DNA from: an uncultured delta proteobacterium
Lineage (GTDB): Bacteria > Desulfobacterota > Binatia > UBA9968
DNA length: 64,000 nucleotides
Assembly (NCBI GenBank): GCA_963804165.1
Contig: CAWDPO010000043.1
Span: 96,001 to 160,000 of the forward strand
Reading direction: 5' to 3'
The position numbers and the translations under genes are program-made. Within the stretch, counting starts at the first letter, position 1; each line of letters opens with the position of its first letter. Below, piece after piece: positions 4,260 to 59,739 of this stretch. The notes beneath the pieces are model-generated. The model searched no databases. It was not told where the DNA came from and saw only the letters and a list, made by a program, of their open reading frames with translations.

Positions 4260-4274
4260 GCAAGAAATAAGCCA
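4260..4274 (-). promoter_or_regulatory. Sigma-54 promoter (-24/-12)
   Basis: TGGCTT-ATTTC-TTGC on the minus strand upstream of the malic enzyme/USP genes. Confidence 0.7.
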
Positions 4275-4325
4275 GGGAACTCGATTTACAAATCGCCGTC
4301 TTAGCGGACTCCAACAGCTATATTT

Positions 4326-4372
4326 TTTCCACTACTGCGAACAAACGACTCGGGTTTTTCCACAATTGAAAA
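4326..4372. promoter_or_regulatory. Paired palindromic upstream activator sites (putative enhancer)
   Basis: TTTCCA-CTAC-TGCGAA (4326) and TTTCCA-CAAT-TGAAAA (4357), 31 bp apart, between divergent sigma-54 promoters. Confidence 0.65.
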
Positions 4373-4434
4373 TATTCTCTCCGAACCCATGGGTACTGAG
4401 GCTGGAACATGCCGTTTACCTTCCGGAACCTTGA

Positions 4435-4449
4435 CGGCACTGGAATTGC
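4435..4449 (+). promoter_or_regulatory. Sigma-54 promoter
   Basis: CGGCAC-TGGAA-TTGC upstream of the DUF2267 gene. Confidence 0.75.
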
Positions 4450-4511
4450 TCAAGTTCTCTTACGGAAAAACATCATTTTTAATCCGGAGAGAATTTCAAG
4501 GAGGAATCGCC

Positions 4512-5027
4512 ATGAGAACCGGACCCACTCATCGTTACCCATTGACGCGCGGCGCACCCCGGTACAAAACCACCTACGACATCTTTGACGGCACGCTGCA
4601 AAAAACACAGATCTGGCTGAACGAGCTGATGACCGCGCTCGACTGGGAAAATCACCCGCAGAAAGCCTATCTCGCATTGCGCACGGTGTTGCACGCCCTG
4701 CGCGATCGGCTGACGGTCGAGGAAGCCGTGCAACTCGGCGCCCAGCTGCCGATGCTCGTGCGCGGTTTCTATTACGAAGGCTGGACGCTCAAAGGAAAAC
4801 CTCGCAAAGAACGGCACAAAGAGGATTTTCTCGCGCACATCAAAGATGCTTTTAAAGAGGACGTCACCGTTCGGCCGGAGAGCATTGCGCGCGCGGTTTT
4901 CAAAGTGTTAGCGCGTCACACCAGCGAAGGCGAAATCGACGACGTCAAGCATATTTTGCCGAAGACGCTGCATGAACTGTGGCCATCGAAGCGCGTTATG
5001 ACGTCTGCGAGCGCAAGAGAGCACTGA
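4512..5027 (+). CDS. DUF2267 family protein
   Basis: AYLALRTVLHALRDRLTVEEAVQLGAQLPMLVRGFYYEGW signature; RBS GGAGG before the ATG at 4512. Confidence 0.88.
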   Translation: MRTGPTHRYPLTRGAPRYKTTYDIFDGTLQKTQIWLNELMTALDWENHPQKAYLALRTVLHALRDRLTVEEAVQLGAQLPMLVRGFYYEGWTLKGKPRKERHKEDFLAHIKDAFKEDVTVRPESIARAVFKVLARHTSEGEIDDVKHILPKTLHELWPSKRVMTSASAREH

Positions 5028-5081
5028 TTCAGGGAAAAGCACTGCTTGCGCGTGATAATCATTGGACGTCGGGTGGTACAT

Positions 5082-5363
5082 ATGGATCGACTATTCCTAC
5101 TGATTGCCGGGGTTGCGATCCTTGGTCTCTATTTTATGATTGCACCGGTTGCTATTAACACCTATCGTCGCTATCGCAAACGTAAGACAATCATCTGTCC
5201 CGATACCGGTCAGATAGTGGAACTGGACCTCAACGCAGTGCATGCCGGTCTCATGTCCGCTTTGGGAAAGCACTGCGTCCGAGTAAAATGGTGCAGCCTG
5301 TGGCCGCGCAAAAAAGGTTGCGCTCAAGAGTGCGTAAATGAGGACTGGTGGTCCCGAGATTGA
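5082..5363 (+). CDS. Small membrane-anchored Cys-rich hypothetical protein
   Basis: N-terminal TM helix, basic patch, then CPDTG...CSLWP...GCAQEC. Confidence 0.7.
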   Translation: MDRLFLLIAGVAILGLYFMIAPVAINTYRRYRKRKTIICPDTGQIVELDLNAVHAGLMSALGKHCVRVKWCSLWPRKKGCAQECVNEDWWSRD

Positions 5364-5602
5364 TGTGCACAGTCCGGGTCAATGGCAGCAATCGCAGATT
5401 AAACTGACGCTTCAACCGTTTCGGCGACGCCGGCCTTCCCGACTCATCGACATGACCCAGAATTAGCGCGCCGGTAACAAATAAGACGACTACCGAAATA
5501 AACTCCATGAATTGCCGACAGTTCGAGACCTGGCTCAGGCAGCGGCGACAGAGATTCAATAAGATACTTAACACCTGCGACAGAGCCGCGAGCAAGAGCG
5601 AT

Positions 5603-5635
5603 TTGAACTAGTTGAACGGTTTGAACGATTCGAGC
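5603..5635 (+). repeat. Short tandem repeat with 9-nt period (TTGAAC-NNN)
   Basis: TTGAAC at 5603, 5612 and 5621, plus degenerate TCGAGC at 5630. Confidence 0.6.
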
Positions 5636-5670: not shown

Positions 5671-7257
5671 ATGGCTATCGAATCCCCCTCCCTACCGCCT
5701 CTGATTCAAACCATGCTGCGCACGAGCTTCTATCCGCACCGCACCGATTCGGTAGAGCTTCGACAGACCCATATTTCCTACGTGCTACTAGCGGGCGATT
5801 ACGTCTACAAAATTAAAAAACCGGTCCGTTTCTCTTTTCTCGACTACTCGACGTTGGAGAAACGTCACCATTTTTGCCACGAAGAAGTCCGCCTGAATCG
5901 GCGGCTTGCCCCGGCAGTTTACCTGGACGTGCTCGCCGTCGCGCGCGACAAAAAACGATTCAGCCTCGAGGTTTTTCCTGGACAAGAGAAGATTGTCGAA
6001 TACGCCGTAAAAATGCGCCGACTCCCAGAGGAATATTTCCTCGACCGACTGATCCAAGAAGGGAAAGCTCGGCAGCAACATTTCGATTCTATCGTGACCA
6101 AGCTGGCGGACTTTTACGCCGCGGCGGCATCCGATCGAGCCTCGCTCTACGGATCTGCGGAGGCGATTCGTGCAAATCTGGAAAAAAACTTGAAACAGAT
6201 GGAGCCATTCATTGGCGAAACCCTCACCTTGGACGAATTTGAACACATACGAGACTATCAGCTTAATTTTCTAACCGAAAACTGTGATCTATTGGATACG
6301 AGAGTTCGAGACGGTCGCGTGAGAGAAGGACATGGCGACCTCCGTGCCGAGCATATCTGCCTTGAGGAAGATCCTGTAATCTTCGACTGCATTGAGTTCA
6401 ACGAGGAATTTCGCTACTGCGATGCAGCCTCAGAAATTGCGTTTCTTTCGATGGATTTGGACTATCTCGGAGTCCCTATGCTCTCGGAGCATTTCGTTCA
6501 GTCCTTTCAGAACCGCACCAAAGATCTTGACCTTTTACGTCTTCTGTCCTTGTACAAAACTTATAGAGCGTGCGTTCGAGGCAAAGTGGAAACGCTAAAA
6601 AGCCGGGAATCCGAGGTGCCCGAGGAGGAACGCCAGGACGCCAAGAGCCGGGCGCGCCGTTACTTTCATCTGGCGCATCGCTACGCGAGCGGTCCCTTTC
6701 CTCCCGCCCTAATTATCGTCTGTGGCCTGGCCGGATCAGGAAAGTCTACTGTCGCTCGAACCGTCGGCGCGCGCACCGGATATCAGATCCTCAACTCCGA
6801 TGTGGTTCGCAAGCAACTGGCCGGCATTTCATTGACGACCCGTTCGATAGAGGATTACGGCAAAGGTCTGTACACCGACTCATTCAATACTCGCACTTAC
6901 GATTGCCTCCTGAAACAGGCCGAAGACTGCTTAAAATCTGGTAAAGGCGTGATTATCGATGCGACGTTTAAGACCTCGCAGCACCGGCGACAATTTATAG
7001 AGCTCGCATCGCGGCGGCACCTACCGGTCCTCTTTGTCGAGTGCCGTGCGAGCGAGGGAAAAACCCTTGAACGCTTGAAAGAACGCCAGCAACGGCCAGG
7101 CGAGGTCTCCGATGCTACGGTGGCGATCTATTTACGGCAGCGAGAGGAGTTTGTGCCATTGACCGAGATGCCCGAGTCGATCCGAATGATCGTAAATACC
7201 GAAGGCGATCCCGAAGAGGCCGCCGGCCAGGTAATGAATTTTCTCCGCAGGACGTAG
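5671..7257 (+). CDS. Aminoglycoside-phosphotransferase-like/AAA_33 kinase fusion (COG2187+COG0645, Rv2004c-like)
   Basis: ELRQTHISYV, YKIKKPV, EEVRLNRRLAP, GHGDL, FDCIEFN motifs and a C-terminal P-loop GLAGSGKS. Confidence 0.9.
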   Translation: MAIESPSLPPLIQTMLRTSFYPHRTDSVELRQTHISYVLLAGDYVYKIKKPVRFSFLDYSTLEKRHHFCHEEVRLNRRLAPAVYLDVLAVARDKKRFSLEVFPGQEKIVEYAVKMRRLPEEYFLDRLIQEGKARQQHFDSIVTKLADFYAAAASDRASLYGSAEAIRANLEKNLKQMEPFIGETLTLDEFEHIRDYQLNFLTENCDLLDTRVRDGRVREGHGDLRAEHICLEEDPVIFDCIEFNEEFRYCDAASEIAFLSMDLDYLGVPMLSEHFVQSFQNRTKDLDLLRLLSLYKTYRACVRGKVETLKSRESEVPEEERQDAKSRARRYFHLAHRYASGPFPPALIIVCGLAGSGKSTVARTVGARTGYQILNSDVVRKQLAGISLTTRSIEDYGKGLYTDSFNTRTYDCLLKQAEDCLKSGKGVIIDATFKTSQHRRQFIELASRRHLPVLFVECRASEGKTLERLKERQQRPGEVSDATVAIYLRQREEFVPLTEMPESIRMIVNTEGDPEEAAGQVMNFLRRT

Positions 7258-8260: not shown

Positions 8261-8350
8261 GGGACATGCCTCCTTTACTTGTGCATTCCATCCGGAAAAT
8301 ACTCCCAGTCCGATACGTTAAGAATCGACGTTGCTAGAGCTTCTGTATTT

Positions 8351-8365
8351 GCAAAACATGTTCCA
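8351..8365 (-). promoter_or_regulatory. Sigma-54 promoter
   Basis: TGGAAC-ATGTT-TTGC on the minus strand. Confidence 0.6.
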
Positions 8366-8700
8366 CGTTCAGTCGTAAGCTCAGGCTGATGAGCAGAATT
8401 TTGAAGTTTAGATGTTGGGGAACGGCTGAATTAATACTGTGATTTCTAAAATGGCAGGTTCGGATCGGATACTGCTTCTTGCAGCACGATGTAAGGTCCA
8501 AATGTCGTCGCTCGGCTGTCCAAGATGCGCGGATGCAATGGCGAACTGTGGGGCCAGCCGGGAGAGTTTGGTTTGCTTTTTTTGATGAGTTCATCGCTAC
8601 CCATTTCCCGAGCCCTCTTCGATAGAGCACTAGCGCAACCTCTGAATCCTTCCCATGTAGAGTCACCTTTGCTGCCTCGCCGTCCAAAGATAGATCTAAA

Positions 8701-8954
8701 TCACTCTTTTTGAGCCAGCTTGGTGTCCACCCATTCGAGGTCGATCGACTGGATTGCCTCTTGTCTAAGTTCCGGATAAGTTTTTCCGAAGCTCGGGTGG
8801 AAGCGACCCATGTACGACTTGAGAATCTCAACTTCGATCGTCAGGGCATCGACGCTGCAGTCAGGTCCACCTTCAAATCTTTGGGCAACGATCCCGTCGC
8901 TTCGATTTCTCGCTGGAACAAGTGTAACTGCTGTTCGATTGCCGCATCGTCCAT
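8701..8954 (-). CDS. Hypothetical protein (frameshift near 8855)
   Basis: RBS GGAGG, then MDDAAIEQQLHLFQREIE..., joining the frame SVDALTIEVEILKSYM...DLEWVDTKLAQKE*. Confidence 0.5.
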
Positions 8955-9017
8955 TTGAGTCCTCCAAGACTGAGTTTAGCGAATCATCAATGACCTGTTA
9001 CCTGCTGTCTCCAGGGC

Positions 9018-9032
9018 GCATACAACGTGCCA
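9018..9032 (-). promoter_or_regulatory. Sigma-54 promoter
   Basis: TGGCAC-GTTGT-ATGC on the minus strand. Confidence 0.7.
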
Positions 9033-9260: not shown

Positions 9261-9275
9261 TGGCACAACGTTTGC
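9261..9275 (+). promoter_or_regulatory. Sigma-54 promoter
   Basis: TGGCAC-AACGT-TTGC, consensus match. Confidence 0.8.
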
Positions 9276-9329
9276 GCTTAATCATATGGACGACAACCGT
9301 AACAATGCGTTGAGTACCGGGAGGTTTTT

Positions 9330-9563
9330 ATGGCAAGCGAAACCGAACTTTTTTATCTTGTGTTGCTTACCCTGCTGACGCTGATCGTGCATTTGATTCT
9401 TTCGACAAAGAACCGCCGACACGCTAGGCATTCACACAGACAGAGTATCGTTAGGGACGGTTTTCACAGCATTTGGGCGCGATGCGACAATCCTTATCGA
9501 TTGGCCGGGTCGATTTTTTGGGGTTATAGGTTCGGCGTGAAATGGATCCGCTCCCACGTGTAA
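9330..9563 (+). CDS. Small single-TM protein, paralog of 22542-22655
   Basis: RBS GGGAGG; MASETELFYLVLLTLLTLIVHLILS is nearly identical to the second copy. Confidence 0.65.
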   Translation: MASETELFYLVLLTLLTLIVHLILSTKNRRHARHSHRQSIVRDGFHSIWARCDNPYRLAGSIFWGYRFGVKWIRSHV

Positions 9564-19842: not shown

Positions 19843-19855
19843 TTATGCGTACCTA

Positions 19856-19902
19856 TTCCCAAGAATGCGAAAAGGGATTATCGGCCTTGCCAAATGTGCA
19901 AA
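19856..19902. promoter_or_regulatory. Paired palindromic sites immediately upstream of the regulator gene (possible autoregulation)
   Basis: TTCCCA-AGAA-TGCGAA (19856) and TTGCCA-AATG-TGCAAA (19887), 31 bp apart. Confidence 0.65.
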
Positions 19903-19984
19903 TCCACAACCCAATTCTATAGAAAATCATTTCATTTTCTATCGTTGAGCAATTATAAGGCCAGGAGCTAAGTTGTATTCCGAG

Positions 19985-22366: not shown

Positions 22367-22478
22367 ATCTGAGAAACATTTTAGATCTTCTATTCCTACT
22401 AAGGAACGAATGTCAATCTAAGTCTTTGAGGTTACACGCAAAATGGGACTGGTGATATTCAGCAGCGTTTCATCTGTC

Positions 22479-22493
22479 TGGCACATGCTTTGC
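22479..22493 (+). promoter_or_regulatory. Sigma-54 promoter
   Basis: TGGCAC-ATGCT-TTGC, with an upstream palindrome TTGCCA-AATC-TGAGAA at 22360. Confidence 0.8.
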
Positions 22494-22541
22494 GCAAAAA
22501 GAAGGAGAAAGCCATTAAGGCTAGGGCGACAAGAGGTATTT

Positions 22542-23830: not shown

Positions 23831-24039
23831 AACTTGATTATAACGCCCGTCTTGCGCGACCTGAAACCATAGCCACCTCTCGGCACAATCTCGATTGCGT
23901 GATTCCGAAGAGCAAAACCCCGGCCGCTCGGACCGTAGTGCTCGACAGCGTGCTCGATCCAACACGGCGAAACTGCCTCAATCGAACCGTTCCCACCAGC
24001 GATGCAATCTCATGTGAACTCACGCGCAGTGTTGGCGTT

Positions 24040-43400: not shown

Positions 43401-46319
43401 GGGGGCCGTCGGGACTGTGGCGCCACGGGATTTCCGGCGATCTGCCCGTCGTGCTCGTGCGCATCGATGAGGCTGAAGACCAGAGTATCGTACGTCAGTT
43501 GCTCCGCGCCCACGAATACTGGCGAATGAAACAGTTGGCGGTCGATCTTGTGATCTTGAACGAACAGCCCTCCTCCTACGCGCAAAATCTTCAGGACGCT
43601 TTGGAGACCCAGGTTCGGGCCAGCCAGTCGCGCCTGCAGCAGAGGGGCCGGACTCATTCGGCAATGTTTTTATTCTCCGCGGCGATCTCATTTCGGCTGA
43701 GGATCGCGCACTGCTCCAGACTGCCGCCCGGGCCGTGCTCTTGAGCCGCCGCGGCACCTTGGCCGAGCAAGTGGAACGTCAGCAACGATCCCAAACGCCT
43801 GCGCTTGCGCGCCACGGCGTCCGTCGGCGAGTAAGGCAGTGGATGTCTTGCCGGCGCGGCCGGAACTGGAATTCTTCAATGGCCTGGGCGGTTTCACCGC
43901 CGACGGCCGTGAATACGTGACGATTCTCGGCGAGGGACAATGGACGCCGGCGCCCTGGATCAACGTGGTCGCGAATCCTTCCTTCGGCTTTCAGGTGTCT
44001 GAATCAGGCGCGGGTTATACCTGGTCGCTCAACAGCCGCGAGAACCAGCTCACACCGTGGTCCAATGACCCGGTCAGCGACCCGCCCGGCGAGACGATAT
44101 ACGTGCGTGACGAAGAGACTGGCGAGTTGTGGAATCCCACGGTGCTGCCGATCCGCGAGGAGGCTTGGCCCTATACCGCCCGACACGGCCAGGGCTACAG
44201 CCGCTTCGAGCACGAGTCGCATGGAGTCGCCCTTGACCATTTACAGTTCGTGCCGCTCGCGGACCCAATTAAAATCTCCCGTCTCACGATCGAGAATCGC
44301 TCTGATCGATCACGGCGCTGTCGGTGACCGCGTACGTCGAGTGGGTGCTCGGGCGTTTCACGGAGCGCATCCGCTCCCTTCGTTGTCACCGAGATCGACG
44401 AGGAAACGCGGGCAATGTTCGCGCGTAACGCTTGGAATAGCGAGTTCGCTGGCCGTGTTGCGTTTGCCGACTAGGCGCGGCCAGCAAACGTCGTGGACTT
44501 GTGATCGGACGGAGTTTCTGGGTCGCCACGGCGCCCCCGATCATCCGGCATCTCTCGAACGAGGGGACCGCTTCTCGGGCAAAGTCGGTGCGGCTCTCGA
44601 CCCATGCGCTGCAATGCAGACGACGGTGGAACTGAACGCCGGGGGCCGTGCGGAGATCGTCTTTTTCCTCGGCGCGGCGGCGAGCGCGGAAGAAGCGCGA
44701 ACATTGATCGCGCGTTACCGCGATGCCGACCTTGATGAGCTCCTGCGCGCGGTCACCCAGTACTGGGATGACATTCTCGGTACGGTGCAGGTGAAAACCC
44801 CCGATCGGGCTATGAACTTTATGCTCAATCGTTGGCTGCTCTATCAGACGCTGGCCTGTCGTGTCTGGTCGCGCTCGGCGTTTTATCAAGCGGGCGGCGC
44901 GTACGGTTTTCGCGATCAGCTTCAAGACGTGATGGCGCTCGTGCTGGCGCAACGAGACATTGCGCGAGCGCAGTTACTGCGGGCCGCCGCGCGTCAATTC
45001 GTCGAGGGAGATGTGCAGCATTGGTGGCATCCTCCATCGGGCCGCGGCGTGCGCACCCGGGTCTCCGATGATCGCGTCTGGCTGCCGTACGCGGTCGTTC
45101 AATACTTGGAAGTCACCGACGATTTCGGACTACTTGATGAGGTCGTTCCCTTTCTCGAGGGTTCCACGCTCGCGGCGGGGCAGGAAGATTTGTATTTCGA
45201 GCCCCGGGTTTCCGCGCAAACCGGCACCTTGTTCGAGCACTGCGCTCGCGCTCTCGATCGCAGTTTGGCCGTTGGCAGTCACGGGCTTCCGCTGATCGGC
45301 ACGGGAGACTGGAACGATGGGATGAACCGGGTTGGATCTGCAGGAAAAGGCGAGAGCGTCTGGCTCGGCTTGGTTTCTTCACACCGTGCTTTGGGAATTT
45401 GCCCGGCTGGCCGATGCTCGCGGCGAGCACCAGCGTGCCGAGACTGTGGCGACTGCATGTCAGCGCGCTTAAAGCAGCGCTGGAACGAGAAGCGTGGGAT
45501 GGCGAATGGTATCGGCGCGCATACTTCGACGATGGGACGCCGCTCGGCTCCGCCGCGAACGCCGAATGCCGCATCGATTCGATCGCCCAATCCTGGGGCG
45601 TCATTTCCGGTGCCGCTGAGCCGGCTCGTGGAGCGCGCGCCATGGCGGCCGTCGAGAAACATCTCGTGCGCCGCGCCGAGGGACTCGTGCTCCTCTTCAG
45701 CCCGCCGTTTGACCGTGGGAGCCCCGATCCGGGCTATATTAAAGGGTACCTGCCCGGGGTGCGCGAAAACGGCGGCCAATATACTCATGCGGCGATCTGG
45801 TCCGTCATTGCTTTCGCGGCGCTCGGCGACGGCGACAAGGCCGGCGAACTTTTCTCGCTCTTGAACCCGATCAATCATGCGAGCAGCCGTGCCGGCGTTT
45901 ACCGCTACAAAGTCGAGCCCTATGTCGTCGCCGCCGATATTTATGCCGAACCGCCGCACGTCGGGCGCGGCGGCTGGACGTGGTACACCGGATCAGCGGG
46001 TTGGATGTACCGGGCCGGCATCGAGTGGATACTAGGTTTCCGTCTGCGCGGCACGAGGCTTTACCTCGATCCTTGTATCCCGCATGCATGGCGCAGCTTT
46101 GAGATCACATTTCGCCATCACTCGGCGCGTTACGAAATCGTCGTCGAGAACCCACAGGGGGTAATGCGCGGGGTGTCATCTGTTGAACTCGATGGCGCAC
46201 CGTTGGCAAGCGGCAGCATGCATATCCAGCTCGTCGACGACGGCGCAACGCACCATGTACGTGTAGTTCTCGGGTCAGAAGGCCTGCCACTCATGCACCA
46301 GGTGGCGATACCGCGATGA
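37442..46319 (+). CDS. ndvB: Cyclic beta-1,2-glucan synthase/phosphorylase (GT84 + glucoamylase-like + GH94), split by many frameshifts
   Basis: EWLVDNY, GWERKRGKL, ITLDADT, SHDLFEG, RWARGDWQ, LPPDNFQE, SWSGSMFEYLMP, YQAGGAYGFRDQLQD, GTGDWNDGM, RENGGQYTH and GGWTWYTGSAGW, in the canonical order. Confidence 0.93.
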
Positions 46320-51995: not shown

Positions 51996-53807
51996 TTAAG
52001 ACGCCTTTCGGTACATATCTTCGATTAAGTCTTTGTAGCGCTCGACAATCACTTGCCGCCGCGGCTTTAGCGTCGGAGTCAATTCTTCGCTCTCGACGGT
52101 GAAATCGCGGTCGAGAATCGTGAAACTTCGAATCGCTTCATAGGGCGCCAGAACCTTATTGGTCTTTTGAATAATCTCCCGCACTTGCGTCTGCACCCAC
52201 GGATGCGCCGCTAGACTCACCGCTGGATCGATTTCAATGCCGCTTTGCTCTGCCAATCGCCGTACTCGTTGAACATTGAGAGTGATCAAAGCTAAAACGT
52301 GGCGCTGCCCCCTGCCAACGATCAGAGCTTGGCTAATCAGGGGGTAGGATTTCAAAAGGTTTTCAAGTTTCTGCGGCGCGACTTTCTTGCCCCCGGAAGT
52401 CACGATCAAATCTCGCTTGCGCTCCGTAATGCGCAAAAAACCATCGGCGTCGACGGCGCCGACGTCACCCGTGTGAAACCAGCCCTCGGCGTCGATCGCT
52501 TCTTGAGTTGCCAGCAGATCGCGGAAGTAGGCTTTGAAAATATTCGGCCCGCGCAGCAAAATCTCACCATCCTCCGCGACGCGACATTCGACACCCGCCA
52601 GCGGCAATCCCACCGTGCCGAACTTGAAATGCCCTGGCCGATTCACGTGGGATACCGTCGACGTTTCCGTCGATCCATAGCCTTCGAGAACGACCATACC
52701 CAACGCGTGGAAAAACCCAGCGATCTCCGGTGACAAGGGCGCGCCACCCGAAATCGCCATGCGCAACCAACCGCCAAACCCCGAGCGCACGCGCGAGAAT
52801 ATCAACAGGTCGGCGACGGCGACGGCTATTGCCGCCGACCAGTCCTGTCTTTTTCCTGCCAATCGCGCCTGCGCCTTTGCCAGGGCCCAATAGAAAAGTT
52901 TCCTGCGCCAGCCATGTTCTCTACCGAGGCGCAGGCGAATGCGATTGTATGCTTGCTCATAGATGCGCGGCACGGAGAAAATCACAGTCGGTCGAATCCT
53001 ACGAAGATCGCTCGCAATGGTCTCCACCGAGCGGGCGACGGTCAGCGTCCAACCTTTTGCCACGGCCATGAAATGCTCTAACCGGCCGAGCGAATGCGCG
53101 GTCGGGAGAAAGTGCAGCGTCACGTCGGCATCGGTTGAGGGCACCGCCGCATCGACCGCGCCGATCATGAATAGATAGTTAGCGTGAGTCGTTAACACTC
53201 CCTTCGGTGTGCCCGTCGTGCCGGAAGTGTAAATGATCGTCAGATCGTCCTCGCAACGAATGCTCTGCGCGAGATTTTCAAAAATATCCTCATGCCGTTC
53301 TGTGTACCCGCGCCCGATCTCCCGGAGACGATCCAGGGTGAGTACGGGTTTCTCTATTCCTACTCCCGAACTGCTTCGATCGCCTTCGATCACGATCACC
53401 GACTTGAGTTGATCCGCCGGGCTCGAATGGAGATCTAACCCGGCAAGGCGCTGCGGTGAATCGACAAAGAGAACCGTCGGATCCGCATGCTCGATGATGT
53501 GGCGCGCTTGGGTTGTCGTACTCGCGGCATAGATCGGAACAGTCAAGGCACCGATACAAATATTCGCCCAATCGGCGAGCAGCCATTCGACCCGGTTGCT
53601 GGCGAAGATCGCGACCCGATCACCGCGTTCGATGCCGAGTGACACTAAACCGAGGGCGATTTCGCGAACCTGGCTTAACGCTTCGTTCCAGGTCAGCGAG
53701 CGCCACTGACCGTCGCGCGAGAAACGATAGAGGACCTTTTGGCCATAACGCCCGGCCTGAGCGATAAACATGGCGGCGAGGCTGCTATAGGGAAATGCTT
53801 GATTCAT
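51996..53807 (-). CDS. Long-chain fatty acid-CoA ligase (FAA1/FadD15 type)
   Basis: YTSGTTGTPKG, EGYGSTE and GWFHTGDVG motifs. Confidence 0.92.
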   Translation of the reverse strand: MNQAFPYSSLAAMFIAQAGRYGQKVLYRFSRDGQWRSLTWNEALSQVREIALGLVSLGIERGDRVAIFASNRVEWLLADWANICIGALTVPIYAASTTTQARHIIEHADPTVLFVDSPQRLAGLDLHSSPADQLKSVIVIEGDRSSSGVGIEKPVLTLDRLREIGRGYTERHEDIFENLAQSIRCEDDLTIIYTSGTTGTPKGVLTTHANYLFMIGAVDAAVPSTDADVTLHFLPTAHSLGRLEHFMAVAKGWTLTVARSVETIASDLRRIRPTVIFSVPRIYEQAYNRIRLRLGREHGWRRKLFYWALAKAQARLAGKRQDWSAAIAVAVADLLIFSRVRSGFGGWLRMAISGGAPLSPEIAGFFHALGMVVLEGYGSTETSTVSHVNRPGHFKFGTVGLPLAGVECRVAEDGEILLRGPNIFKAYFRDLLATQEAIDAEGWFHTGDVGAVDADGFLRITERKRDLIVTSGGKKVAPQKLENLLKSYPLISQALIVGRGQRHVLALITLNVQRVRRLAEQSGIEIDPAVSLAAHPWVQTQVREIIQKTNKVLAPYEAIRSFTILDRDFTVESEELTPTLKPRRQVIVERYKDLIEDMYRKAS

Positions 53808-53871
53808 CGCGTTGGCGATCTCCGTCAATGACCTATGAACACCAAATGTTAGAGCGCCACGCCGACGCCCA

Positions 53872-54213
53872 CTATGACGAAAGTCCCGTCCAGCACCGGG
53901 TGCGAACTGTCCAAGAGTCCCCGATCCATCGCCACCTGACAAATGCCGAATCGATCGATCCATAAAGTTCGATGGAGTCAACGTCCCATTTGGTCCGTGC
54001 ATCGTTATAAAAGATCAGGATTCCCGCTGCTCCGTCTTCATCAATAAACATGGTGTAATCGATCACAGTCATGGGGTTTCGATCGGGAATTGTTGGCGGC
54101 AGGATGACTCGCTCGTGTCGAAGATTTTCTCCGACTCTGAGCTGCTCGGGCATCGCTTTATCGCTTAAGACCAATGCTGCGATCAAAACCAGGAAGCCGC
54201 AGAGTTTCTTCAT
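53872..54213 (-). CDS. Hypothetical exported protein (C-terminus possibly frameshifted)
   Basis: Signal peptide MKKLCGFLVLIAALVL; sigma-54 promoter upstream. Confidence 0.5.
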   Translation of the reverse strand: MKKLCGFLVLIAALVLSDKAMPEQLRVGENLRHERVILPPTIPDRNPMTVIDYTMFIDEDGAAGILIFYNDARTKWDVDSIELYGSIDSAFVRWRWIGDSWTVRTRCWTGLSS

Positions 54214-54241
54214 TTTCCATCACCACCGTGATAACAAACAG

Positions 54242-54443
54242 GCAAACTATGTGCCCAGCGATGGAGCCCAGGCACAGTTAGAATCTCAATGAATGCGGCT
54301 GATGATTCGAATCAAACGCTCGGAATTTTCTCAGAGATGAAAATCTCTAGGACGTTTTCCTACTAAGAATGCGAAGGAAACTTGCGCTCGGCTCAGCAAA
54401 AGTGGGGGATTCATTAGGATACAACTCGCGGCACTCCAATTGC
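54242..54443. promoter_or_regulatory. Divergent sigma-54 promoters with paired activator sites
   Basis: GGGCAC-ATAGT-TTGC (-, 54242-54256), CGGCAC-TCCAA-TTGC (+, 54429-54443); TTCTCA-GAGA-TGAAAA (54328) and CTACTA-AGAA-TGCGAA (54360). Confidence 0.72.
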
Positions 54444-54502
54444 GTCTGCAAAAGGCAAATTGACAACATTTCCACACGGGTAACCTTAGGAAAGGTCTAC
54501 GC

Positions 54503-55576
54503 ATGCGTACGTTCAGCTACGATAGGTCCCGGAACTCGGTACTATGGGGATTGGTTTTGGCAGCCGGAGACGGTAGAAGACTGCAAAGCTATATCCAGAA
54601 GCTTCTCGGCGAGAATCTGCCTAAGCAATACGTTAATTTTGTCGGCCGGCGTTCGATGTTGGAGCACACTATCCACCGCGCTAAGAAGCTCATCTCAGCG
54701 CGCCAGGTCGTTACTATAGTAAGCCGCCAGCACCTGCAATTCACCACGGTCCAGCGCCAGCTTGCCCGCCTTTCGCCAAAAAACGTGATCGTTCAGCCCG
54801 AAAATCGAGAAACGCTTCCTGGAATCTTGCTGCCGTTGATGCATCTCTATAAACGCTGTTCGGAATCCATCGTCGCGTTATTTCCATCGGATCATTTCAT
54901 CTTGGAAGAAGACCGTTTCATGGATTATGTGGCGCAGGCCGCCCGTGCGGTCGCGCACGATCCCTCCCGCCTCGTCCTGCTCGCCATCGAGCCGCAGGAT
55001 CCTGAAACCGAGTATGGCTACGTTGTTCCGCGTGCAAATGACGGCCACTTAAGCATTTGGGGGACGCGTAGCGCCGTGCGTTTTGTCGAGAAGCCTAATG
55101 CCGCGATGGCCCACGGGCTTATTGAGTCAGGGGCCTTGTGGAACACCATGATTATGGTTTTTAAGGTTCGAACGCTCCTGCAGCTCATAGAGAAGCTTTG
55201 CCCGGCCGTGTATCTCGACTTCAGACGCATTCTTCCGGCGCTCGGCAGCGCGAATGAAACGGAAGCTGTCAATGAAATTTATCGGACACTCGAACCCATG
55301 AATTTTTCAAAGGTATTCTTAGAACGGCTTGCTGCGGTCAGTCCCGAGCGGATATCGGTACTGCCGGTGCTCCAGGTATTCTGGAGCGACTGGGGCTCGC
55401 CGGAACGGTTGTTACGGACGCAGGAGCTACTGACGGCTTCACGTGTGGGGCAATTCAAGTACGTCGTGCAACGTCATGAATATCGGGCACTGGAAGCAAA
55501 TCAAGGCGACCAGGCAGCCCACGATGGAGTGATAGTCCAGCGGGCGTGTCATTCACGCGCGGGAGAATGTCTATGA
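54503..55576 (+). CDS. Sugar-phosphate nucleotidyltransferase (mannose-1-phosphate guanylyltransferase-like)
   Basis: LAAGDGRRL, PKQY, FPSDH, EYGY, FVEKP and WSDWG motifs. Confidence 0.88.
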   Translation: MRTFSYDRSRNSVLWGLVLAAGDGRRLQSYIQKLLGENLPKQYVNFVGRRSMLEHTIHRAKKLISARQVVTIVSRQHLQFTTVQRQLARLSPKNVIVQPENRETLPGILLPLMHLYKRCSESIVALFPSDHFILEEDRFMDYVAQAARAVAHDPSRLVLLAIEPQDPETEYGYVVPRANDGHLSIWGTRSAVRFVEKPNAAMAHGLIESGALWNTMIMVFKVRTLLQLIEKLCPAVYLDFRRILPALGSANETEAVNEIYRTLEPMNFSKVFLERLAAVSPERISVLPVLQVFWSDWGSPERLLRTQELLTASRVGQFKYVVQRHEYRALEANQGDQAAHDGVIVQRACHSRAGECL

Positions 55577-56007
55577 GAACGATATCGGTGCGCAAACGGC
55601 TCGGATTGATGACGCTTGTATTCAGCGGCGGTCTTCTGGCACTCCTACCTGTTGCATCGCCGCAAAACGTCCGCGCGCGCGAAGAGGCGGCGCGTATAGT
55701 GACTGTTGAGAAGATCGCCATCACGGACGATGTAGTTTCGGGCGAGGTGCTCAATCGCTCTCCGAATGTACTTCGTGATATCCAACTTTTGATTCGCTAC
55801 ACCTGGTTGTGGGACAACGAAACGAAACCCGGTAAGGACGATCCCAGTACATCCATCTACTACGTTTTGCCCAAAGAGATTCCCCCCGGTGGGCGCTTGC
55901 CCTTCACGTACAAACCGTCGCCTCCGTTACCCAAGAGGGTGGGTGGGCGCTTTGAAACTTCGGCCTCTATCGCCGGGTTTGCCGAAGTGATTCAGCAAAT
56001 TCGGTAG
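55573..56007 (+). CDS. Hypothetical exported protein
   Basis: Signal peptide followed by a beta-rich domain; ATGA overlap with the upstream gene. Confidence 0.65.
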   Translation: MRTISVRKRLGLMTLVFSGGLLALLPVASPQNVRAREEAARIVTVEKIAITDDVVSGEVLNRSPNVLRDIQLLIRYTWLWDNETKPGKDDPSTSIYYVLPKEIPPGGRLPFTYKPSPPLPKRVGGRFETSASIAGFAEVIQQIR

Positions 56008-56025: not shown

Positions 56026-57756
56026 TCACTCCGTCTCTGGTCGAATCTGGTAATGATCTTGGATGTGCGCCAGAATCTCCGCTCGATCGGGATTGACTCC
56101 CGCCGGCATGGTACGCTCGAGTTTACGCAGTCCCTTCGCTAGCTGTTGGTCGCCAATGACTTCGCCTACCCAGCGGGAAAAGTCACCCGCAAGCAAATGG
56201 TGGCGCAGCGAAAAAAATGGCAAGGTCTGCACTGCCTGGTAGAATTCCATCATATTATGGGCGGCGAGTGCCTTACCCGCATTGACGAAGCGAAATGCCT
56301 TGTCATCGGGCAAACGCGTGTCCGCGTATTTGCGGGCGTGATGTGAGTGCCCCGTCACCCGTTTCACGGGAGTGAACACTTCCCAAGGGGCTTTCACCGA
56401 ATTCACCATTAGGAGTCCGGCATGCGGCGGTTCCAGGCGATCGAGTGCATCGTGCACGGGTATCTGCAGATGATCATGCGCCTGTAGGATCTTGGTGACG
56501 AAGTAACGCTCTTCCTCGACTTTAGTGCTGGTAATGACGTGTGCGCCGATGGTGCCATAGACTCCGCTCGCCAATAAGCTAGGCCGATACGTCACGAAAC
56601 AAAAACTTCCGCTGGAAGTATTAAGATACTTCAAGCAAGGACTCTGTGCCTGAAAGAAGTAATGCGCCTCATCGATCACAATCCAGTGCGGGCAACCCGT
56701 GCTTTGCCGCATCTCCTGCAGCGCCCCGAGTAACTGATCGACGTAATGCAGTTGATCCTGAGGCGCCCGGGATGAGAGCACCAATATGATACTTAGGGCT
56801 TCGTTGCTAAGGAGCCTTGCTGCCGCTGCCGGGGAGAGCAAAGCTAGTTCAACTCCGAAGGTCACGACCCTGGATCGCTCTCCCATCTGAGCATAATCAC
56901 CTTCGGGATCGATGACGCAAACGCGGTAGCCTTGTTCGATGAGTTGCTCGCCAAGAAGACCCGCGATCCAGGATTTTCCCGAGCGGGGGTCACCGCTGAC
57001 GACAACGTTGGTACCGGAAGTGGGAATCGTGACCGGCTGTCCTTCCGAGTTCTTGCCGAGCAAGACGGTGCGACGAGCAGGAGTAGGCACGGCACCGCTG
57101 TGCTCCAACAAATTTCGGATATAAGCAGCGACGCCGGCTCCGCCCGGCTGCGACAACCGATCATCGGCGAGCGCCGTTACTGCGGGGATGGAACCGCGCG
57201 CGGCCACTCCGATTTCCGCATTCACTAGCATGGGTATATCGTTTTCCGCATCGCCGAAAGCGATCAAATTTCGTTCCGATCGTCCCAGCTCAGCCAGCGC
57301 TCGACGAATTCCGACCGCCTTATTGATTCCGCTAGGGAGAACCATCAAGGCAGCTCGGTTGAAGACCAATTGGCCGTCAATGCCGAACCGACGGATGAGC
57401 GCAAGAAGCTTATCGGCGTGCTGTTCCCAGGTGCCAACGATTACCGCCCCTGTATGAAACGGCACACCCAGCGCTCGTAGCTCGCCGAGAAAGTGCTCGG
57501 ATGGCGGTTCGCCAATTTGAATTGTCCGCTCCAGCCCGCAAAGATAAATTAGGGCTCCATTTTCCGCGACGACGGCATCGAAAGGCGATAACTCGTCGCA
57601 CGCGCGTTGGACATCCTCCAAGACTCGTCCCGTGACTAATAAGGTCACGAATCCTTGGGCCCGCGCTGCCGCCAATGCGGCATACAATTCGGGGGCAGGA
57701 TGTCCGTCAGTGGCTCCGGTGCCGTCGAAGTCACATGCGATGACACGGCAATACAT
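56026..57756 (-). CDS. HAD-IIB phosphatase plus P-loop ATPase (HerA/DUF87-like) plus DUF5752-like tail
   Basis: DFDGT, TGR, GDAEND; Walker A GDPRSGKS, IDPEGDY, Walker B IVIDEAH; GDFSRWV. Confidence 0.82.
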   Translation of the reverse strand: MYCRVIACDFDGTGATDGHPAPELYAALAAARAQGFVTLLVTGRVLEDVQRACDELSPFDAVVAENGALIYLCGLERTIQIGEPPSEHFLGELRALGVPFHTGAVIVGTWEQHADKLLALIRRFGIDGQLVFNRAALMVLPSGINKAVGIRRALAELGRSERNLIAFGDAENDIPMLVNAEIGVAARGSIPAVTALADDRLSQPGGAGVAAYIRNLLEHSGAVPTPARRTVLLGKNSEGQPVTIPTSGTNVVVSGDPRSGKSWIAGLLGEQLIEQGYRVCVIDPEGDYAQMGERSRVVTFGVELALLSPAAAARLLSNEALSIILVLSSRAPQDQLHYVDQLLGALQEMRQSTGCPHWIVIDEAHYFFQAQSPCLKYLNTSSGSFCFVTYRPSLLASGVYGTIGAHVITSTKVEEERYFVTKILQAHDHLQIPVHDALDRLEPPHAGLLMVNSVKAPWEVFTPVKRVTGHSHHARKYADTRLPDDKAFRFVNAGKALAAHNMMEFYQAVQTLPFFSLRHHLLAGDFSRWVGEVIGDQQLAKGLRKLERTMPAGVNPDRAEILAHIQDHYQIRPETE

Positions 57757-57782
57757 ATTCGAAATCCAGGATCCGAAGCTGA

Positions 57783-58268
57783 TTAGGCAGCCTTCCTTCT
57801 GCGCGGTTCCACCAGTCGAACAATCTGGGGCTTCGCAAATACAGTGAAATCTCTGTAGCGCAACCTCACCGTCTGGGCATGATTCCCGGCGTTGAAGTAG
57901 ATGTATTGATCCTTCTCCAGCTCGGGATCGACGTAGACTTTGAGGCCAAAAAGATTTCCAAATGGCGGCATCGCGCCGATTTCACAGCCGGGAAAGCGCG
58001 AGATAAATTCATCTTCTGTTGCCAATCGCACCCGGGTGGCACCCAAGCTCGACCGTGCCATATCCAAGCTGATCTTATGGCTGCCCCTAATCACGCCCAT
58101 GACCAGCGTGCCGTCGACAACAAGCATCACAACCTTGGCGATTTCGTTTCCGGACACGTGTTGCTGGGCGGCGATCTCCTGCGCAGTATACGCAAGCGGG
58201 TGGTTGAAAACCTCGTACGACACTTTCCCTTCATCGAGCATTTCCTTTAGCTTCGTCAAAATCGGCAT
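57783..58268 (-). CDS. YbaK/ProX aminoacyl-tRNA editing domain protein
   Basis: AKVV, LATE.E...FPGCEIGAMPPFG and FNAGNH motifs. Confidence 0.88.
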   Translation of the reverse strand: MPILTKLKEMLDEGKVSYEVFNHPLAYTAQEIAAQQHVSGNEIAKVVMLVVDGTLVMGVIRGSHKISLDMARSSLGATRVRLATEDEFISRFPGCEIGAMPPFGNLFGLKVYVDPELEKDQYIYFNAGNHAQTVRLRYRDFTVFAKPQIVRLVEPRRRKAA

Positions 58269-58332
58269 AACTTCCTCCTTTCGGCTGCAATGCACTAATT
58301 AAATTAGATTTAATCTCTGTTGAATATTGGTG

Positions 58333-58558
58333 GCAAGAACCGTGCCTTAGATTCGGGCAAGACGTTTTCTATTTCCTGCACGATATAGGCTCTCCACAGA
58401 TGCACCCTCATGATTGAGGCGACCTCAGTTCCCACCGCTGATAATTCTCCTGGTTCGTTTTCTCACGCGTGCGAGCCGAGTGGCCCAATCAGATAAATTC
58501 TCAGTTTATTCGCGGGATTTCTCGCTGCGAAAATCGTTCACCGTGGCACATCTCTTGC
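58333..58558. promoter_or_regulatory. Divergent sigma-54 promoters with paired activator sites
   Basis: AGGCAC-GGTTC-TTGC (-, 58333-58347), TGGCAC-ATCTC-TTGC (+, 58544-58558); TTCCCA-CCGC-TGATAA (58429) and TTCTCA-CGCG-TGCGAG (58460). Confidence 0.78.
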
Positions 58559-58611
58559 CGCTCTTTGTGGATGAATGCGGGCGCACAATCAGCAAAGATG
58601 GAGGAAGACAT

Positions 58612-59079
58612 ATGAAAATTCCCTTGAAGATCACCTTTCGTGACATGCCCCCTTCGAAAGCGATCGAGAACAATATTCGCGCGAAAGCCAGCAAGCTGGA
58701 TGTATTTTACGACGCCATCATGAGCTGTCGGGTCATCGTCGAGGCGCCGCACCGCCACCATCATAAGGGCAAGGCCTATGTAGTACGTATCGACCTGACT
58801 GTCCCGGGAGGCGAACTGGTGGTCAATCGTGAGCCCAAGCGTCTAGTGGCCGCCCCGGTGGAACATATAGAAGAATTAGAAAAGACATGGGCCGAAAGTC
58901 ATGGGCCGAGCAAGCATGCGGCACATGAGGATGCCTATGTCGCTATTCGCGATGCCTTCAACGCGGCGGCGCGTAAGTTACAGGACTATGCGCGGCGGCA
59001 GCTGGCAAGACTAAGGTCCATGAATCCACGCGGCTGCGTCACCCTAAACGGTCCTCTCCGAATTCTTGAGACGATTTGA
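58612..59079 (+). CDS. HPF/RaiA-family ribosome-associated (hibernation) protein
   Basis: MKIPLKITFRDM..S.AIE...CRVIVEAPHRH...VRIDLTVPG...HEDAYVAIRDAF. Confidence 0.88.
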   Translation: MKIPLKITFRDMPPSKAIENNIRAKASKLDVFYDAIMSCRVIVEAPHRHHHKGKAYVVRIDLTVPGGELVVNREPKRLVAAPVEHIEELEKTWAESHGPSKHAAHEDAYVAIRDAFNAAARKLQDYARRQLARLRSMNPRGCVTLNGPLRILETI

Positions 59080-59165
59080 GCGAGCGAACAGCAAGCCGCG
59101 CAACGGTTCCTGAAACCAGGGCGACGCGCCGTTCGGTTTTGGCCGTCTCAGCGGGAACCCGATGA

Positions 59166-59531
59166 TCATGCCGCACGCCCGTGCACGCCGTGCCGGTGTT
59201 TAGTCTTTTCCTCTGCGTGTTTGTCTTTCGTTTCGCGCAGTCCGCGACGAACGTACTCTGGGTCGAGGCCGAGGAGATCGCACACATTGTCGAAGGAAAA
59301 GATCCAGTCGTTACCCCTGTGCATAATCCACTTCTCGGCAGTACGGAATCGTTCTTTACCCTTCGGATCGTGCGCCCGACTGTATTTGCGATACTCATGC
59401 GCCGCGTCTTCAAGAATCGCAGCGACTAGCGCTCGTTCGGGTTCGAGGTGCTCGCTGCGGCGAAACGTATCCAAGTACTGCTGCGCCATTGAAGTGTCGC
59501 CGTTCATGATCGTAATAATGTTTTCCGCCAT
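59166..59531 (-). CDS. Conserved-looking hypothetical protein
   Basis: EPERALVAAILEDA...A..W...WIFSFDNVCDLLGLDPEYVRRGL; RBS GAAGG. Confidence 0.7.
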   Translation of the reverse strand: MAENIITIMNGDTSMAQQYLDTFRRSEHLEPERALVAAILEDAAHEYRKYSRAHDPKGKERFRTAEKWIMHRGNDWIFSFDNVCDLLGLDPEYVRRGLRETKDKHAEEKTKHRHGVHGRAA

Positions 59532-59585
59532 TGCGCTCACCTTCCTTTCTACTTTGAGTTTCGAATTCGTCCCTAAATAACTCAC

Positions 59586-59739
59586 GCAACCGATATGCCA
59601 CTAGGTTACGCGGAGCTGATGCCGTGTTCTTCCCAGCCTTGCAAGAATTTGCCCGGCGCCTTCTCAGCGCTGAGAAATGGCCATGACTAAAAGCCGAAAA
59701 GTCGAAGTAAATCGAGCGTATCAATGGCATAGCCGTTGC
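59586..59739. promoter_or_regulatory. Divergent sigma-54 promoters with paired activator sites
   Basis: TGGCAT-ATCGG-TTGC (-, 59586-59600), TGGCAT-AGCCG-TTGC (+, 59725-59739); TTCCCA-GCCT-TGCAAG (59630) and the perfect palindrome TTCTCA-GCGC-TGAGAA (59661). Confidence 0.8.

Follow-up and report, generated by a model that had tools for sequence, protein, structure and literature searches.

In rhizobia and Caulobacter, the heme-PAS kinase FixL has as its partner a FixJ-type regulator, a receiver joined to a LuxR-type helix–turn–helix, which works with sigma-70. In the DosS/DosT–DosR system of Mycobacterium, kinases that hold heme in GAF domains and a regulator of the LuxR/NarL type act through sigma-70 promoters to switch on a dormancy regulon at low oxygen. 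Regulators of the NtrC type use ATP to open sigma-54 promoters, and dimers placed on one face of the DNA suit the assembly of their rings. NtrY, the kinase of the alphaproteobacterial NtrY–NtrX system, is a membrane protein. Here we describe a locus in which a FixL-type sensor appears to be joined to an NtrC-type output. It lies in a 64-kb stretch of DNA, ‘the window’ (G000:C43:96001-160000), from the genome of an uncultured, soil-type bacterium of the Binatia (G000; an assembly of 7.5 Mb in 46 contigs, its completeness rated at 81%), and comprises a soluble histidine kinase, the sigma-54 activator encoded next to it, and a cluster of stress-type genes behind predicted sigma-54 promoters.

Among described systems, NmpRSTU of Myxococcus xanthus comes closest. 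Its protoglobin kinase, NmpU, requires heme and, by prediction, is active when oxygen is present; this enzyme phosphorylates, and so silences, the hybrid kinase NmpS, and at low oxygen NmpS phosphorylates the NtrC-like regulator NmpR (PMC11841059). The sites of NmpR are paired GCGCA-N5-TGCGC sequences, mostly 14-15 bp apart, near sigma-54 promoters. Its regulon comprises 7 promoters and 23 genes—among them CBS, Usp, hemN–hemerythrin, a cbb3 oxidase cluster, and the system's own operons—and one target is induced by hypoxia in an NmpR-dependent manner (PMC11841059). The same paper mentions the DosR regulon for its Usp genes. Work on Brucella reports that NtrY binds heme (PMC9409073), and NtrX is described as being without the GAFTGA motif (bioRxiv 10.1101/2023.06.06.543975). 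In Vibrio cholerae, FlrB is reported to bind heme, unconventionally, in a PAS domain of novel architecture and to phosphorylate the sigma-54 activator FlrC (bioRxiv 10.1101/2023.06.29.547052). Finally, the low-oxygen-activated (Lxa) locus of Burkholderia cenocepacia is a single, Usp-rich stress locus that is turned on at low oxygen (PMC6127331, PMC12973609). These descriptions are drawn from portions of the cited sources.

An earlier interpretation of the window, made from the letters alone (the sequence-only reading), had proposed a third wiring, beside those of FixL and Dos, and had not recognized it as described. The elements of this proposal—heme-PAS kinase, sigma-54 activator and clustered stress genes—are supported, to the extent that sequence can tell. 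That the wiring is undescribed is too strong a claim, since in NmpRSTU a heme kinase is already connected with an NtrC-like sigma-54 activator, and NtrY–NtrX and FlrB–FlrC are further cases, as far as the portions of the sources at hand go. Our literature search, outside which most subscription journals and supplements lay, found no description of a FixL-type heme-PAS kinase in a one-step pair with a sigma-54 activator, none of the motif TTCNCA-N4-TGNGAA or of a regulon so large and clustered, and no paper joining Binatia and sigma-54.

The sensor kinase and the sigma-54 activator

The highest mean hydropathy of any 19-residue segment of the kinase is only 1.28 on the Kyte–Doolittle scale, so no membrane segment is predicted. 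Each of its two tandem PAS repeats was searched separately against all PDB chains, and both proved to be closer to the heme-binding PAS domain of FixL than to other PAS domains. The best matches for repeat 1 were FixL 8js5 (E 4e-25) and 1dp6 (E 6e-25), and for repeat 2, FixL 1dp6 (E 6e-29) and 1d06 (E 1.7e-27). The DosP heme-PAS domain followed, with E values of 1e-14 to 1e-16; LOV and other PAS domains reached 1e-8 at best. Repeat 2 aligns with FixL without gaps, and repeat 1 with a single 2-residue insertion in a late loop. In both alignments, the FixL His is matched by the His of ‘HDxYIxRY’. Two pocket positions, occupied by Arg in both repeats, align with the Ala positions of the FixL mutants 2cmn and 1y28, as read in the alignments from these chains against the wild type. 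We take the aligned FixL residues to be the proximal heme-ligand His and the oxygen-responsive Arg, with the 1y28 Arg presumably the one tied to the oxygen response. From these alignments we infer that the kinase binds heme in its FixL-type PAS domains.

The heme-pocket motif is present in all 15 of the related kinase open reading frames (ORFs) examined, and in the kinase of another genus as well (48-60% overall identity). This retention across related kinases argues for selection on the pocket. Tandem duplication of the heme-PAS domain was seen only in G000 and its closest relative, G024 (88% identical). The kinase core, too, is FixL-like: against the NCBIfam FixL model it scores 381 bits, under the 850-bit cut-off.

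Directly downstream of the kinase, on the same (-) strand and 142 bp away, lies the activator gene. Its product has the complete NtrC-type set of Pfam domains (Response_reg; Sigma54_activat, E 3.5e-68; AAA_lid_14; HTH_8). The activator loop reads GSFTGA where the family has GAFTGA, a variant that we assume to be functional. The protein does not reach the cut-off of any named NCBIfam equivalog; AtoC, NtrC and ZraR come closest. There are 28 strong matches to the sigma-54 activator domain in the G000 genome, and this protein is the sole one within the window.

Kinase and activator occur side by side in related genomes of the genus, the activator being 82-93% identical and the kinase 46-88% (residues 301-792). 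An activator orthologue (at least 80% identity) is present in 18 of 31 genomes of the genus, G000 included, the same count as for an adjacent kinase–activator pair, and one genome of another genus of the family also has an adjacent pair, its activator 73% identical. In metagenomes, 29 loci have a kinase of 60% identity or more and reach 1 kb or farther downstream of it; at 26 of them the activator, at 79-94% identity, follows directly after the kinase. Farther out, at seven metagenome loci where kinases 54-58% identical lack an adjacent activator, no response regulator was found among the 10 neighbouring ORFs examined. Across the phylum, a close kinase orthologue turned up in 2 of the 401 genomes sampled, G000 and the relative in the other genus; five candidates were scored per genome, and weaker relatives would be missed at this depth. 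In a scan of named genomes with the activator, one of the best 80 loci, in the only close relative found there (L084, ‘MAG: Candidatus Binatia bacterium’), has a heme-pocket motif nearby, just upstream of the activator. On this genomic evidence, the predicted two-component system is conserved in one family of uncultured bacteria.

Promoters, paired palindromes and the activator that probably recognizes them

The window was scanned with the -24/-12 pattern TGGCAC-N5-TTGC, and the result compared with 100 shuffles. With at most one mismatch, 17 sites were found where 4.5 +/- 2.3 were expected, and 0/100 shuffles reached 17. Eleven of these are intergenic and face a gene, with a ribosome-binding site and start codon 40-80 nucleotides downstream. 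Three sites with two mismatches (4259-, 19948- and 27169-) have the same placement, bringing the total to 14, and ten of the 14 form five divergent pairs: 4259/4435, 9017/9261, 54241/54429, 58332/58544 and 59585/59725. Having GG and GC elements spaced by 10 bp in front of genes, in a genome (G000) that encodes rpoN, the 14 sites are best read as sigma-54 promoters.

Most of these promoters are accompanied by a second element. Enumeration of exact palindromes in the regulatory regions of the window yielded no shared motif, because the sites are degenerate, and another candidate, TTTTC...GAAAA with variable spacing, gave way to the one defined here. This was derived by comparing 27 upstream regions, from 24 genomes, of the gene for hibernation-promoting factor (HPF). 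It consists of two 16-bp copies of TTCNCA-N4-TGNGAA whose starts are 31 bp apart. The HPF promoter, TGGCA(C/T)-N5-CTTGCC, is kept in 22 of the 27 regions. Allowing up to two mismatches in each copy, two copies exactly 31 bp apart, at about 95 and 126 bp before the promoter, are present in 14 regions, and at least one copy in 19.

We built a symmetrized weight matrix from the HPF sites only, and scanned the whole genome with it, setting a threshold of at least 16 bits for pairs. Pairs number 25 at a spacing of 31, 8 at 30 and 7 at 32; every other spacing between 18 and 60 has 0-10. Of the 40 pairs with spacings of 30-32, 22 lie within C43:1-170 kb, which is 2.3% of the genome, and ten of them are in the window. 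An outward-facing -24/-12 site occurs within 200 bp of 21/39 distinct pairs versus 16/135 pairs of control spacing, and such sites occur on both sides of 11/39 versus 2/135. The placing of a single pair between two outward promoters suggests an enhancer that both share and that acts in both directions. In the window itself, the motif occurs nine times with at most one mismatch (2.75 +/- 1.7 expected; 0/100 shuffles reach 9), and 12 of the 14 promoters come with a pair whose starts are 30-32 bp apart.

The upstream regions of the Hsp20 gene were absent from the training of the matrix, and so provide an independent check. Here the promoter is present at 15/15 loci, a pair of at least 22 bits at 11/15, and the divergent promoter at 9/15. 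Like -24/-12 elements also precede the orthologous Zn-ribbon/CBS/hemerythrin operon at two related loci (L023 and L025).

The activator gene has sites of its own. At all 17 orthologous loci with enough upstream DNA, a -24/-12 element of consensus TGGC(C/T)T-N5-(A/T)TTGC(T/G) is found between -109 and -130 relative to the start codon, and at 16 of these a motif pair of 17-37 bits lies between this element and the start codon. On account of this arrangement, the activator probably regulates its own gene. The paralogous activator, 59-61% identical, behaves differently: 0/12 of its loci reach 16 bits (best scores, -7.7 to 9.3), and many of its upstream regions carry paired GTCC...GGAC palindromes instead, while 9/12 have a -24/-12 element (at least 8/10 consensus positions) upstream of the gene. 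The HPF promoter, moreover, is found in 21 genomes of which 17 have the activator orthologue, and in the three genomes where HPF is without the promoter (G007, G018 and G021) there is neither the orthologue nor a close heme-PAS kinase. Because of these three lines of comparison—leader pairs, paralogue contrast and co-occurrence in the genus—we think it very likely that these promoters are controlled by the window's activator by way of this motif.

The paralogue has surroundings of its own. A second, smaller island at C40:171-218 kb in G000 (L082, L169) contains the paralogous activator (C40:200767-202116; 59% identical) together with copies of HPF (84%), YbaK (80%), orf55546, the nucleotidyl transferase (65%), the ferritin-like gene, Usp and BON. 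Together with the distinct palindromes of the paralogue group, this island hints at a sister regulon that has a motif of its own.

The sequence-only reading had described a soluble kinase with two FixL-type heme-PAS domains directly upstream of an NtrC-family activator, about 14 GG-N10-GC promoters before stress genes, and the same paired palindrome near most of them, and had proposed synteny and motif conservation in related genomes as a check. All of these points are borne out: the palindrome now has a definition, and the adjacency of the pair, and the HPF, Hsp20 and activator promoters with their motifs, are kept in relatives. The coordinates of the features are collected in the table below.

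Table. Predicted features of the kinase–activator locus and of its putative regulon, with positions in the window
Feature	Position	Strand	Remarks
NtrC-type sigma-54 enhancer-binding response regulator	18490-19842	-	REC, AAA+ with GSFTGA, HTH_8
-24/-12 element TGGCCT-N5-ATTGCT before activator gene	19948-19963	-	like element in 17/17 orthologous loci
Motif pair, 29.8 bits, in activator leader	19854-19904	.	downstream of the activator's promoter; presumed autoregulatory site
Soluble sensor histidine kinase	19985-22366	-	Pfam PAS_3, PAS_4, two further PAS, HisKA, HATPase_c; start codon uncertain
FixL-type heme-PAS domain 1 (about aa 323-445)	21032-21400	-	retains pocket His and both Arg
FixL-type heme-PAS domain 2 (about aa 446-568)	20663-21031	-	75% identical to domain 1
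Promoter: malic-enzyme N-terminal-domain ORF (3652-4218) and tandem-Usp gene (2730-3659)	4259-4274	-	
Motif pair, 28.3 bits	4324-4374	.	common to divergent promoters 4259(-) and 4435(+)
Promoter: DUF2267 gene (4512-5027) and following ORFs	4435-4450	+	
Promoter: small ORFs and orf 8334-8831	9017-9032	-	
Weaker motif pair, 21.2 bits	9093-9143	.	between promoters 9017(-) and 9261(+)
Promoter: 77-aa membrane protein (9330-9563)	9261-9276	+	perfect consensus
Promoter: 37-aa membrane peptide (22542-22655)	22479-22494	+	perfect consensus; single motif copy at 22360-22375
Motif pair, 23.4 bits	24038-24088	.	upstream of promoter 24149(+)
Promoter: operon of Zn-ribbon (24259-24432), three CBS, hemerythrin (to 26530)	24149-24164	+	
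-24/-12-like element before small rubrerythrin-like gene (ends 26829)	27169-27184	-	
Weak -24/-12 candidate, ferritin-like gene (27883-28374, -)	28429-28444	-	tentative
Weak motif pair, 19.5 bits, upstream of ferritin-like gene (27883-28374, -)	28571-28622	.	tentative
Decayed -24/-12 element TGACAC, facing orf 28752-29402	29407-29421	-	GG lost
Motif pair, 23.6 bits	29639-29690	.	between decayed elements 29407(-) and 29740(+)
Decayed -24/-12 element TTGCAC, facing lipoprotein/BON gene	29740-29754	+	GG lost
Promoter: 113-aa secreted ORF, AMP-binding enzyme (51996-54002), three Usp genes (down to 49574)	54241-54256	-	
Motif pair, 23.7 bits, spacing 32	54326-54377	.	common to promoters 54241(-) and 54429(+)
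Promoter: nucleotidyl transferase (54503-55576) and orf 55546-56007	54429-54444	+	
Promoter: YbaK-type deacylase-like gene (57783-58268), HAD-AAA gene (56026-57756)	58332-58347	-	kept in L023
Motif pair, 31.9 bits	58427-58477	.	common to promoters 58332(-) and 58544(+)
Promoter: hibernation-promoting-factor-type gene (58612-59079)	58544-58559	+	perfect consensus; kept in 22/27 related loci
Promoter: 121-aa ORF of no known family (59166-59531)	59585-59600	-	divergent promoter in 9/15 related loci
Motif pair, 36.0 bits, genome's best	59628-59678	.	common to promoters 59585(-) and 59725(+)
Promoter: Hsp20 (59811-60239)	59725-59740	+	kept in 15/15 related loci

Extent and gene content of the island

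Stress-type genes are unusually concentrated in the window, as Pfam scans of the larger ORFs reveal. They include six Usp genes; a Zn-ribbon gene, three CBS genes and a hemerythrin gene that form one operon; and rubrerythrin- and ferritin-like, BON, DUF2267, HPF/S30AE-type and Hsp20 genes. Others specify a YbaK-type editing-domain protein (a YbaK-like deacylase), a HAD-AAA fusion, an AMP-binding enzyme and a nucleotidyl transferase. The predicted targets in the window (about 14 promoters and 30 genes) are these genes, the BON gene apart, together with two small membrane peptides. This gene content fits low oxygen, and the label ‘hypoxia/dormancy’ is drawn from it and from the type of sensor.

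The regulon had been thought to run across 55 kb. Candidate promoters do occur throughout this span, but it is a patchwork, because two blocks, at 9.8-18 and 30-49 kb, have neither -24/-12 sites nor pairs and are not counted in the regulon; it also extends beyond the window. The first of these blocks is unrelated, and contains an OmpR-type two-component pair and three PMT-type glycosyltransferases. The second contains Usp, SLOG, RNB, a GH94 glucan enzyme, DedA and an MgtC-like protein; its GH94 region (38-46 kb), of higher G+C, is likewise unrelated. A CRP-family gene at 31476-32309 was considered as a FixK-like second tier and rejected, having no upstream -24/-12 site or motif and no FNR-type N-terminal cysteine cluster. 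In a related genome, G015, both halves of the window regulon lie together within about 20 kb, in the order activator, PriCT gene, Zn-ribbon/CBS/hemerythrin operon, Usp genes, HAD-AAA, YbaK, HPF, Usp, orf and Hsp20, with -24/-12 elements at orthologous positions.

The island extends about 60 kb upstream of the window, where pairs with flanking -24/-12 sites occur at C43:35.3, 39.2, 40.4, 42.9, 68.3, 71.1, 73.5 and 85.2 kb. The genes behind these pairs include those for a PaaA/PaaC-like protein, a CBS/CoA-binding protein, a phosphorylase, P-type ATPases, GAPDH, a NorB-like haem-copper oxidase with a cytochrome c-like domain, a cytochrome c, a formate/nitrite transporter, subunits of pyruvate:ferredoxin oxidoreductase, and more Usp, CBS and Hsp20 proteins. 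One of the P-type ATPases, encoded upstream of the NorB-like gene and behind a predicted sigma-54 promoter, is divided between neighbouring ORFs of 396 and 416 amino acids (C43:44484-46951; L164:14484-16951), by either a frameshift or an assembly error.

Several other genes of the window merit description. The two small membrane peptides, of 77 amino acids (9330-9563, +) and 37 amino acids (22542-22655, +), are paralogues with near-identical first 25 residues; each gene is preceded by a -24/-12 promoter of perfect consensus, and six related loci hold promoter-bearing orthologues. Next to the kinase, on the (-) strand at 22703-23965, is a gene for a 420-amino-acid protein that has a PriCT_1 (primase C-terminal) domain and resembles PriS faintly, and which is kept at 61-85% identity beside the kinase/CBS operon at 5 related loci. 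It might be an island-resident repair enzyme of the primase-polymerase type rather than a remnant of a mobile element. At 3652-4218 (-), a 188-amino-acid ORF has the N-terminal domain of malic enzyme only, and the tandem-Usp gene at 2730-3659 (-) overlaps it and follows directly after it; the alternatives for this ORF are a malic enzyme that has been truncated and an odd domain that stands alone. Downstream of the DUF2267 operon, 5671-7257 (+) encodes a 528-amino-acid protein whose C-terminal domain is an AAA_33/zeta-toxin-like kinase and whose N-terminal half belongs to no known family. The GH94/cyclic beta-1,2-glucan-type enzyme (38400-46319, +) is apparently broken into several ORFs, at 38400-39926, 39916-41493, 41348-43744, 44065-45864 and 45399-46319. 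The G+C content of this region is 59-62%, versus about 53% in the surroundings, and frameshifts or a foreign insertion are possible.

The proposed circuit, its alternatives and its relatives

We propose that the components described above act in the following way. The soluble kinase would hold heme in its FixL-type PAS domains and, by analogy with FixL, oxygen bound to the heme would keep it off, so that falling oxygen would permit autophosphorylation. The kinase would then phosphorylate the receiver of the adjacent NtrC-type activator, as their conserved adjacency suggests. The activator, according to the comparative genomics, would bind the palindrome pairs, whose starts, 31 bp or about three helical turns apart, would therefore place two dimers on the same face of the DNA. 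Bound activator would assemble and, by looping of the DNA to the sigma-54 holoenzyme, spend ATP to open promoters 60-130 bp away, often on both sides. The net effect would be that low oxygen turns on a programme of maintenance and anaerobic metabolism from a single chromosomal neighbourhood. This full mechanism, from heme-based oxygen-sensing kinase through sigma-54 activator to paired-motif regulon, we consider moderately probable. More tentatively, and at slightly less than an even chance, we suggest that one FixL-type sensor and one sigma-54 activator command a ‘low-oxygen island’ of roughly 120 kb with at least 25 promoters, whose repeated module is a single enhancer pair that serves divergent sigma-54 promoters on both sides. 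The island would be a counterpart of the mycobacterial DosR dormancy regulon, of independent origin and driven by enhancers, in an uncultured, phylum-level lineage, accomplishing in one step what takes a three-kinase relay in Myxococcus.

A number of observations weigh against this interpretation. The raw -24/-12 pattern is by itself weak evidence, because at up to two mismatches it is not enriched (78 sites versus 62 +/- 9; 5/100 shuffles reach 78). Promoters 22479+ and 27169- have no pair detectable in the weight-matrix scan, and the elements at 29407-29421 and 29740-29754 have lost their GG. Since the genome has so many activator-domain matches, the assignment of this particular activator relies entirely on comparative genomics, in which the co-occurrence counts overstate independence, the genomes being close kin. 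Two genomes, G012 and G017 (94% and 91% complete), keep the HPF/Hsp20 promoter and motif although no orthologue of kinase or activator was found in them, and G004 and G016 have the HPF promoter without the activator orthologue. The pair in the activator leader sits downstream of the activator's own promoter and could bring about repression, not activation. In G024, the second heme-PAS repeat has His in place of one pocket Arg. Finally, ‘dormancy’ is an analogy; the programme is probably not solely this, because the genes upstream of the window more closely resemble a shift to anaerobic energy metabolism.

Two of these observations need comment. At 29.4-29.7 kb, promoter decay or an assembly error in G000 is possible; the L018 orthologue of the left-hand gene (28752-29402) retains an intact TGGCAC. 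The activator's own pair lies at a similar distance from its promoter to the others, and could act in positive feedback or as a roadblock.

The same circuit might respond not to oxygen but to nitric oxide (NO), carbon monoxide (CO) or redox state, and its programme might be mainly one of nitrosative stress or anaerobic respiration. Heme-PAS domains in general bind several diatomic gases, the wider island has the NorB-like protein with its cytochrome c-like domain and the formate/nitrite transporter, and the window has hemerythrin and rubrerythrin-like genes. Both repeats, however, retain the Arg aligned with that of 1y28, tied in FixL to the oxygen response, and the majority of targets are general stress and energy-state proteins rather than NO-detoxifying enzymes, so that we judge a signal other than oxygen unlikely. 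It is very improbable, in our view, that the PAS domains no longer bind heme, and that the system senses energy or nutrient state (stationary phase) with oxygen having no direct part. The kinase does have two further N-terminal PAS domains of unassigned ligand, and CBS, Usp and HPF targets are typical of general energy limitation; yet the pocket motif preserves the ligand His in 15/15 related kinases and in the kinase of the other genus, at 48-60% overall identity, which speaks for selection on the pocket.

Another activator, such as the 60% paralogue on C40, could also drive what are real sigma-54 promoters, leaving the kinase–activator pair as a neighbour with a smaller target set. The genome offers 28 candidates, and the C40 mini-island places copies of the HPF, YbaK, nucleotidyl transferase and ferritin-like genes beside the paralogous activator, the HPF copy having a promoter of the same type and a weak TTCNCA-N4-TGNGAA pair. 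The sites retained in G012 and G017 without a detectable orthologue point the same way. The leaders tell against it: the motif pair is in that of this activator at 16/17 loci, and in that of the paralogue at 0/12 at 16 bits or above, many of which carry a different palindrome. This activator, moreover, is the only one in the window, inside the C43 stretch that holds 22 of the 40 pairs. We regard control by another activator as improbable, and prefer the oxygen-responsive pair acting on its own neighbourhood.

How does this proposed circuit compare with those already known? With FixL–FixJ(–FixK) of rhizobia and Caulobacter, the kinase has in common the heme-PAS sensor domain, but not the output: the adjacent, co-conserved regulator consists of REC, sigma-54 AAA+ and HTH_8, and is not of the FixJ type. 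No FixJ-like gene was found beside the kinase; the genes that flank the pair are the PriCT-domain gene and a methyltransferase-like gene. With DosS/DosT–DosR, the likeness is one of gene content, which is strikingly parallel—clustered Usp, alpha-crystallin/Hsp20, CBS and ribosome-hibernation-type genes—whereas the sensor and output domains are not homologous, there being no GAF domain in this kinase, and the regulator being of the NtrC type. NtrY–NtrX likewise joins a heme kinase to an NtrC-family regulator, as far as its partial sources tell; here the activator has GSFTGA and sits among -24/-12 promoters. FlrB–FlrC differs, in the account available, in a PAS domain that is not FixL-like and in a flagellar regulon. 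The Lxa locus resembles the island in being one chromosomal locus of Usp-type genes, and the opening lines of its abstracts show no link to sigma-54 or heme-PAS.

What the locus offers is a testable oxygen-response circuit for a lineage without a cultured member, specified down to the sensor, the activator, a 16-bp site, a 31-bp pairing and about 14 promoters. It would show that a FixL sensor module can be coupled to sigma-54 output, with the tight off-states and ATP-dependent activation that this brings, and one enhancer pair serving two divergent promoters would be a clean, natural model of bidirectional enhancer action. In metagenomes from soil and sediment, these genes could mark a low-oxygen response.

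The comparison with NmpRSTU, made from part of its published account, is the closest. Both have, by prediction in the present case, a heme kinase and an NtrC-like activator, paired palindromes, sigma-54, autoregulation, and CBS, Usp, hemerythrin and low-oxygen targets. The sensor of NmpRSTU is a protoglobin; here it is a FixL-type PAS domain, predicted to be paired directly with the activator. A relay of the Nmp type (protoglobin kinase, receiver-only protein and hybrid kinase) was not found beside the pair, the kinase being PAS only. A FixL-type sensor that oxygen inhibits needs no inverter, and therefore a plain two-component pair would give the same output, ‘on at low oxygen’. NmpR recognizes GCGCA-N5-TGCGC with 14-15 bp between sites; in the present case the motif reads TTCNCA-N4-TGNGAA, and the starts of its two copies are 31 bp apart. 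The regulon of NmpR is scattered over the chromosome, whereas here about 21 promoter-linked pairs lie mostly in one neighbourhood of roughly 120 kb. Usp, CBS, Hsp20, HPF and hemerythrin classes would have been brought under the control of a heme kinase three separate times, in Dos, in Nmp and here. The wiring that we propose is not unprecedented; it is in the type of sensor, the direct two-component wiring, the DNA motif and the size of the regulon that it differs from NmpRSTU.

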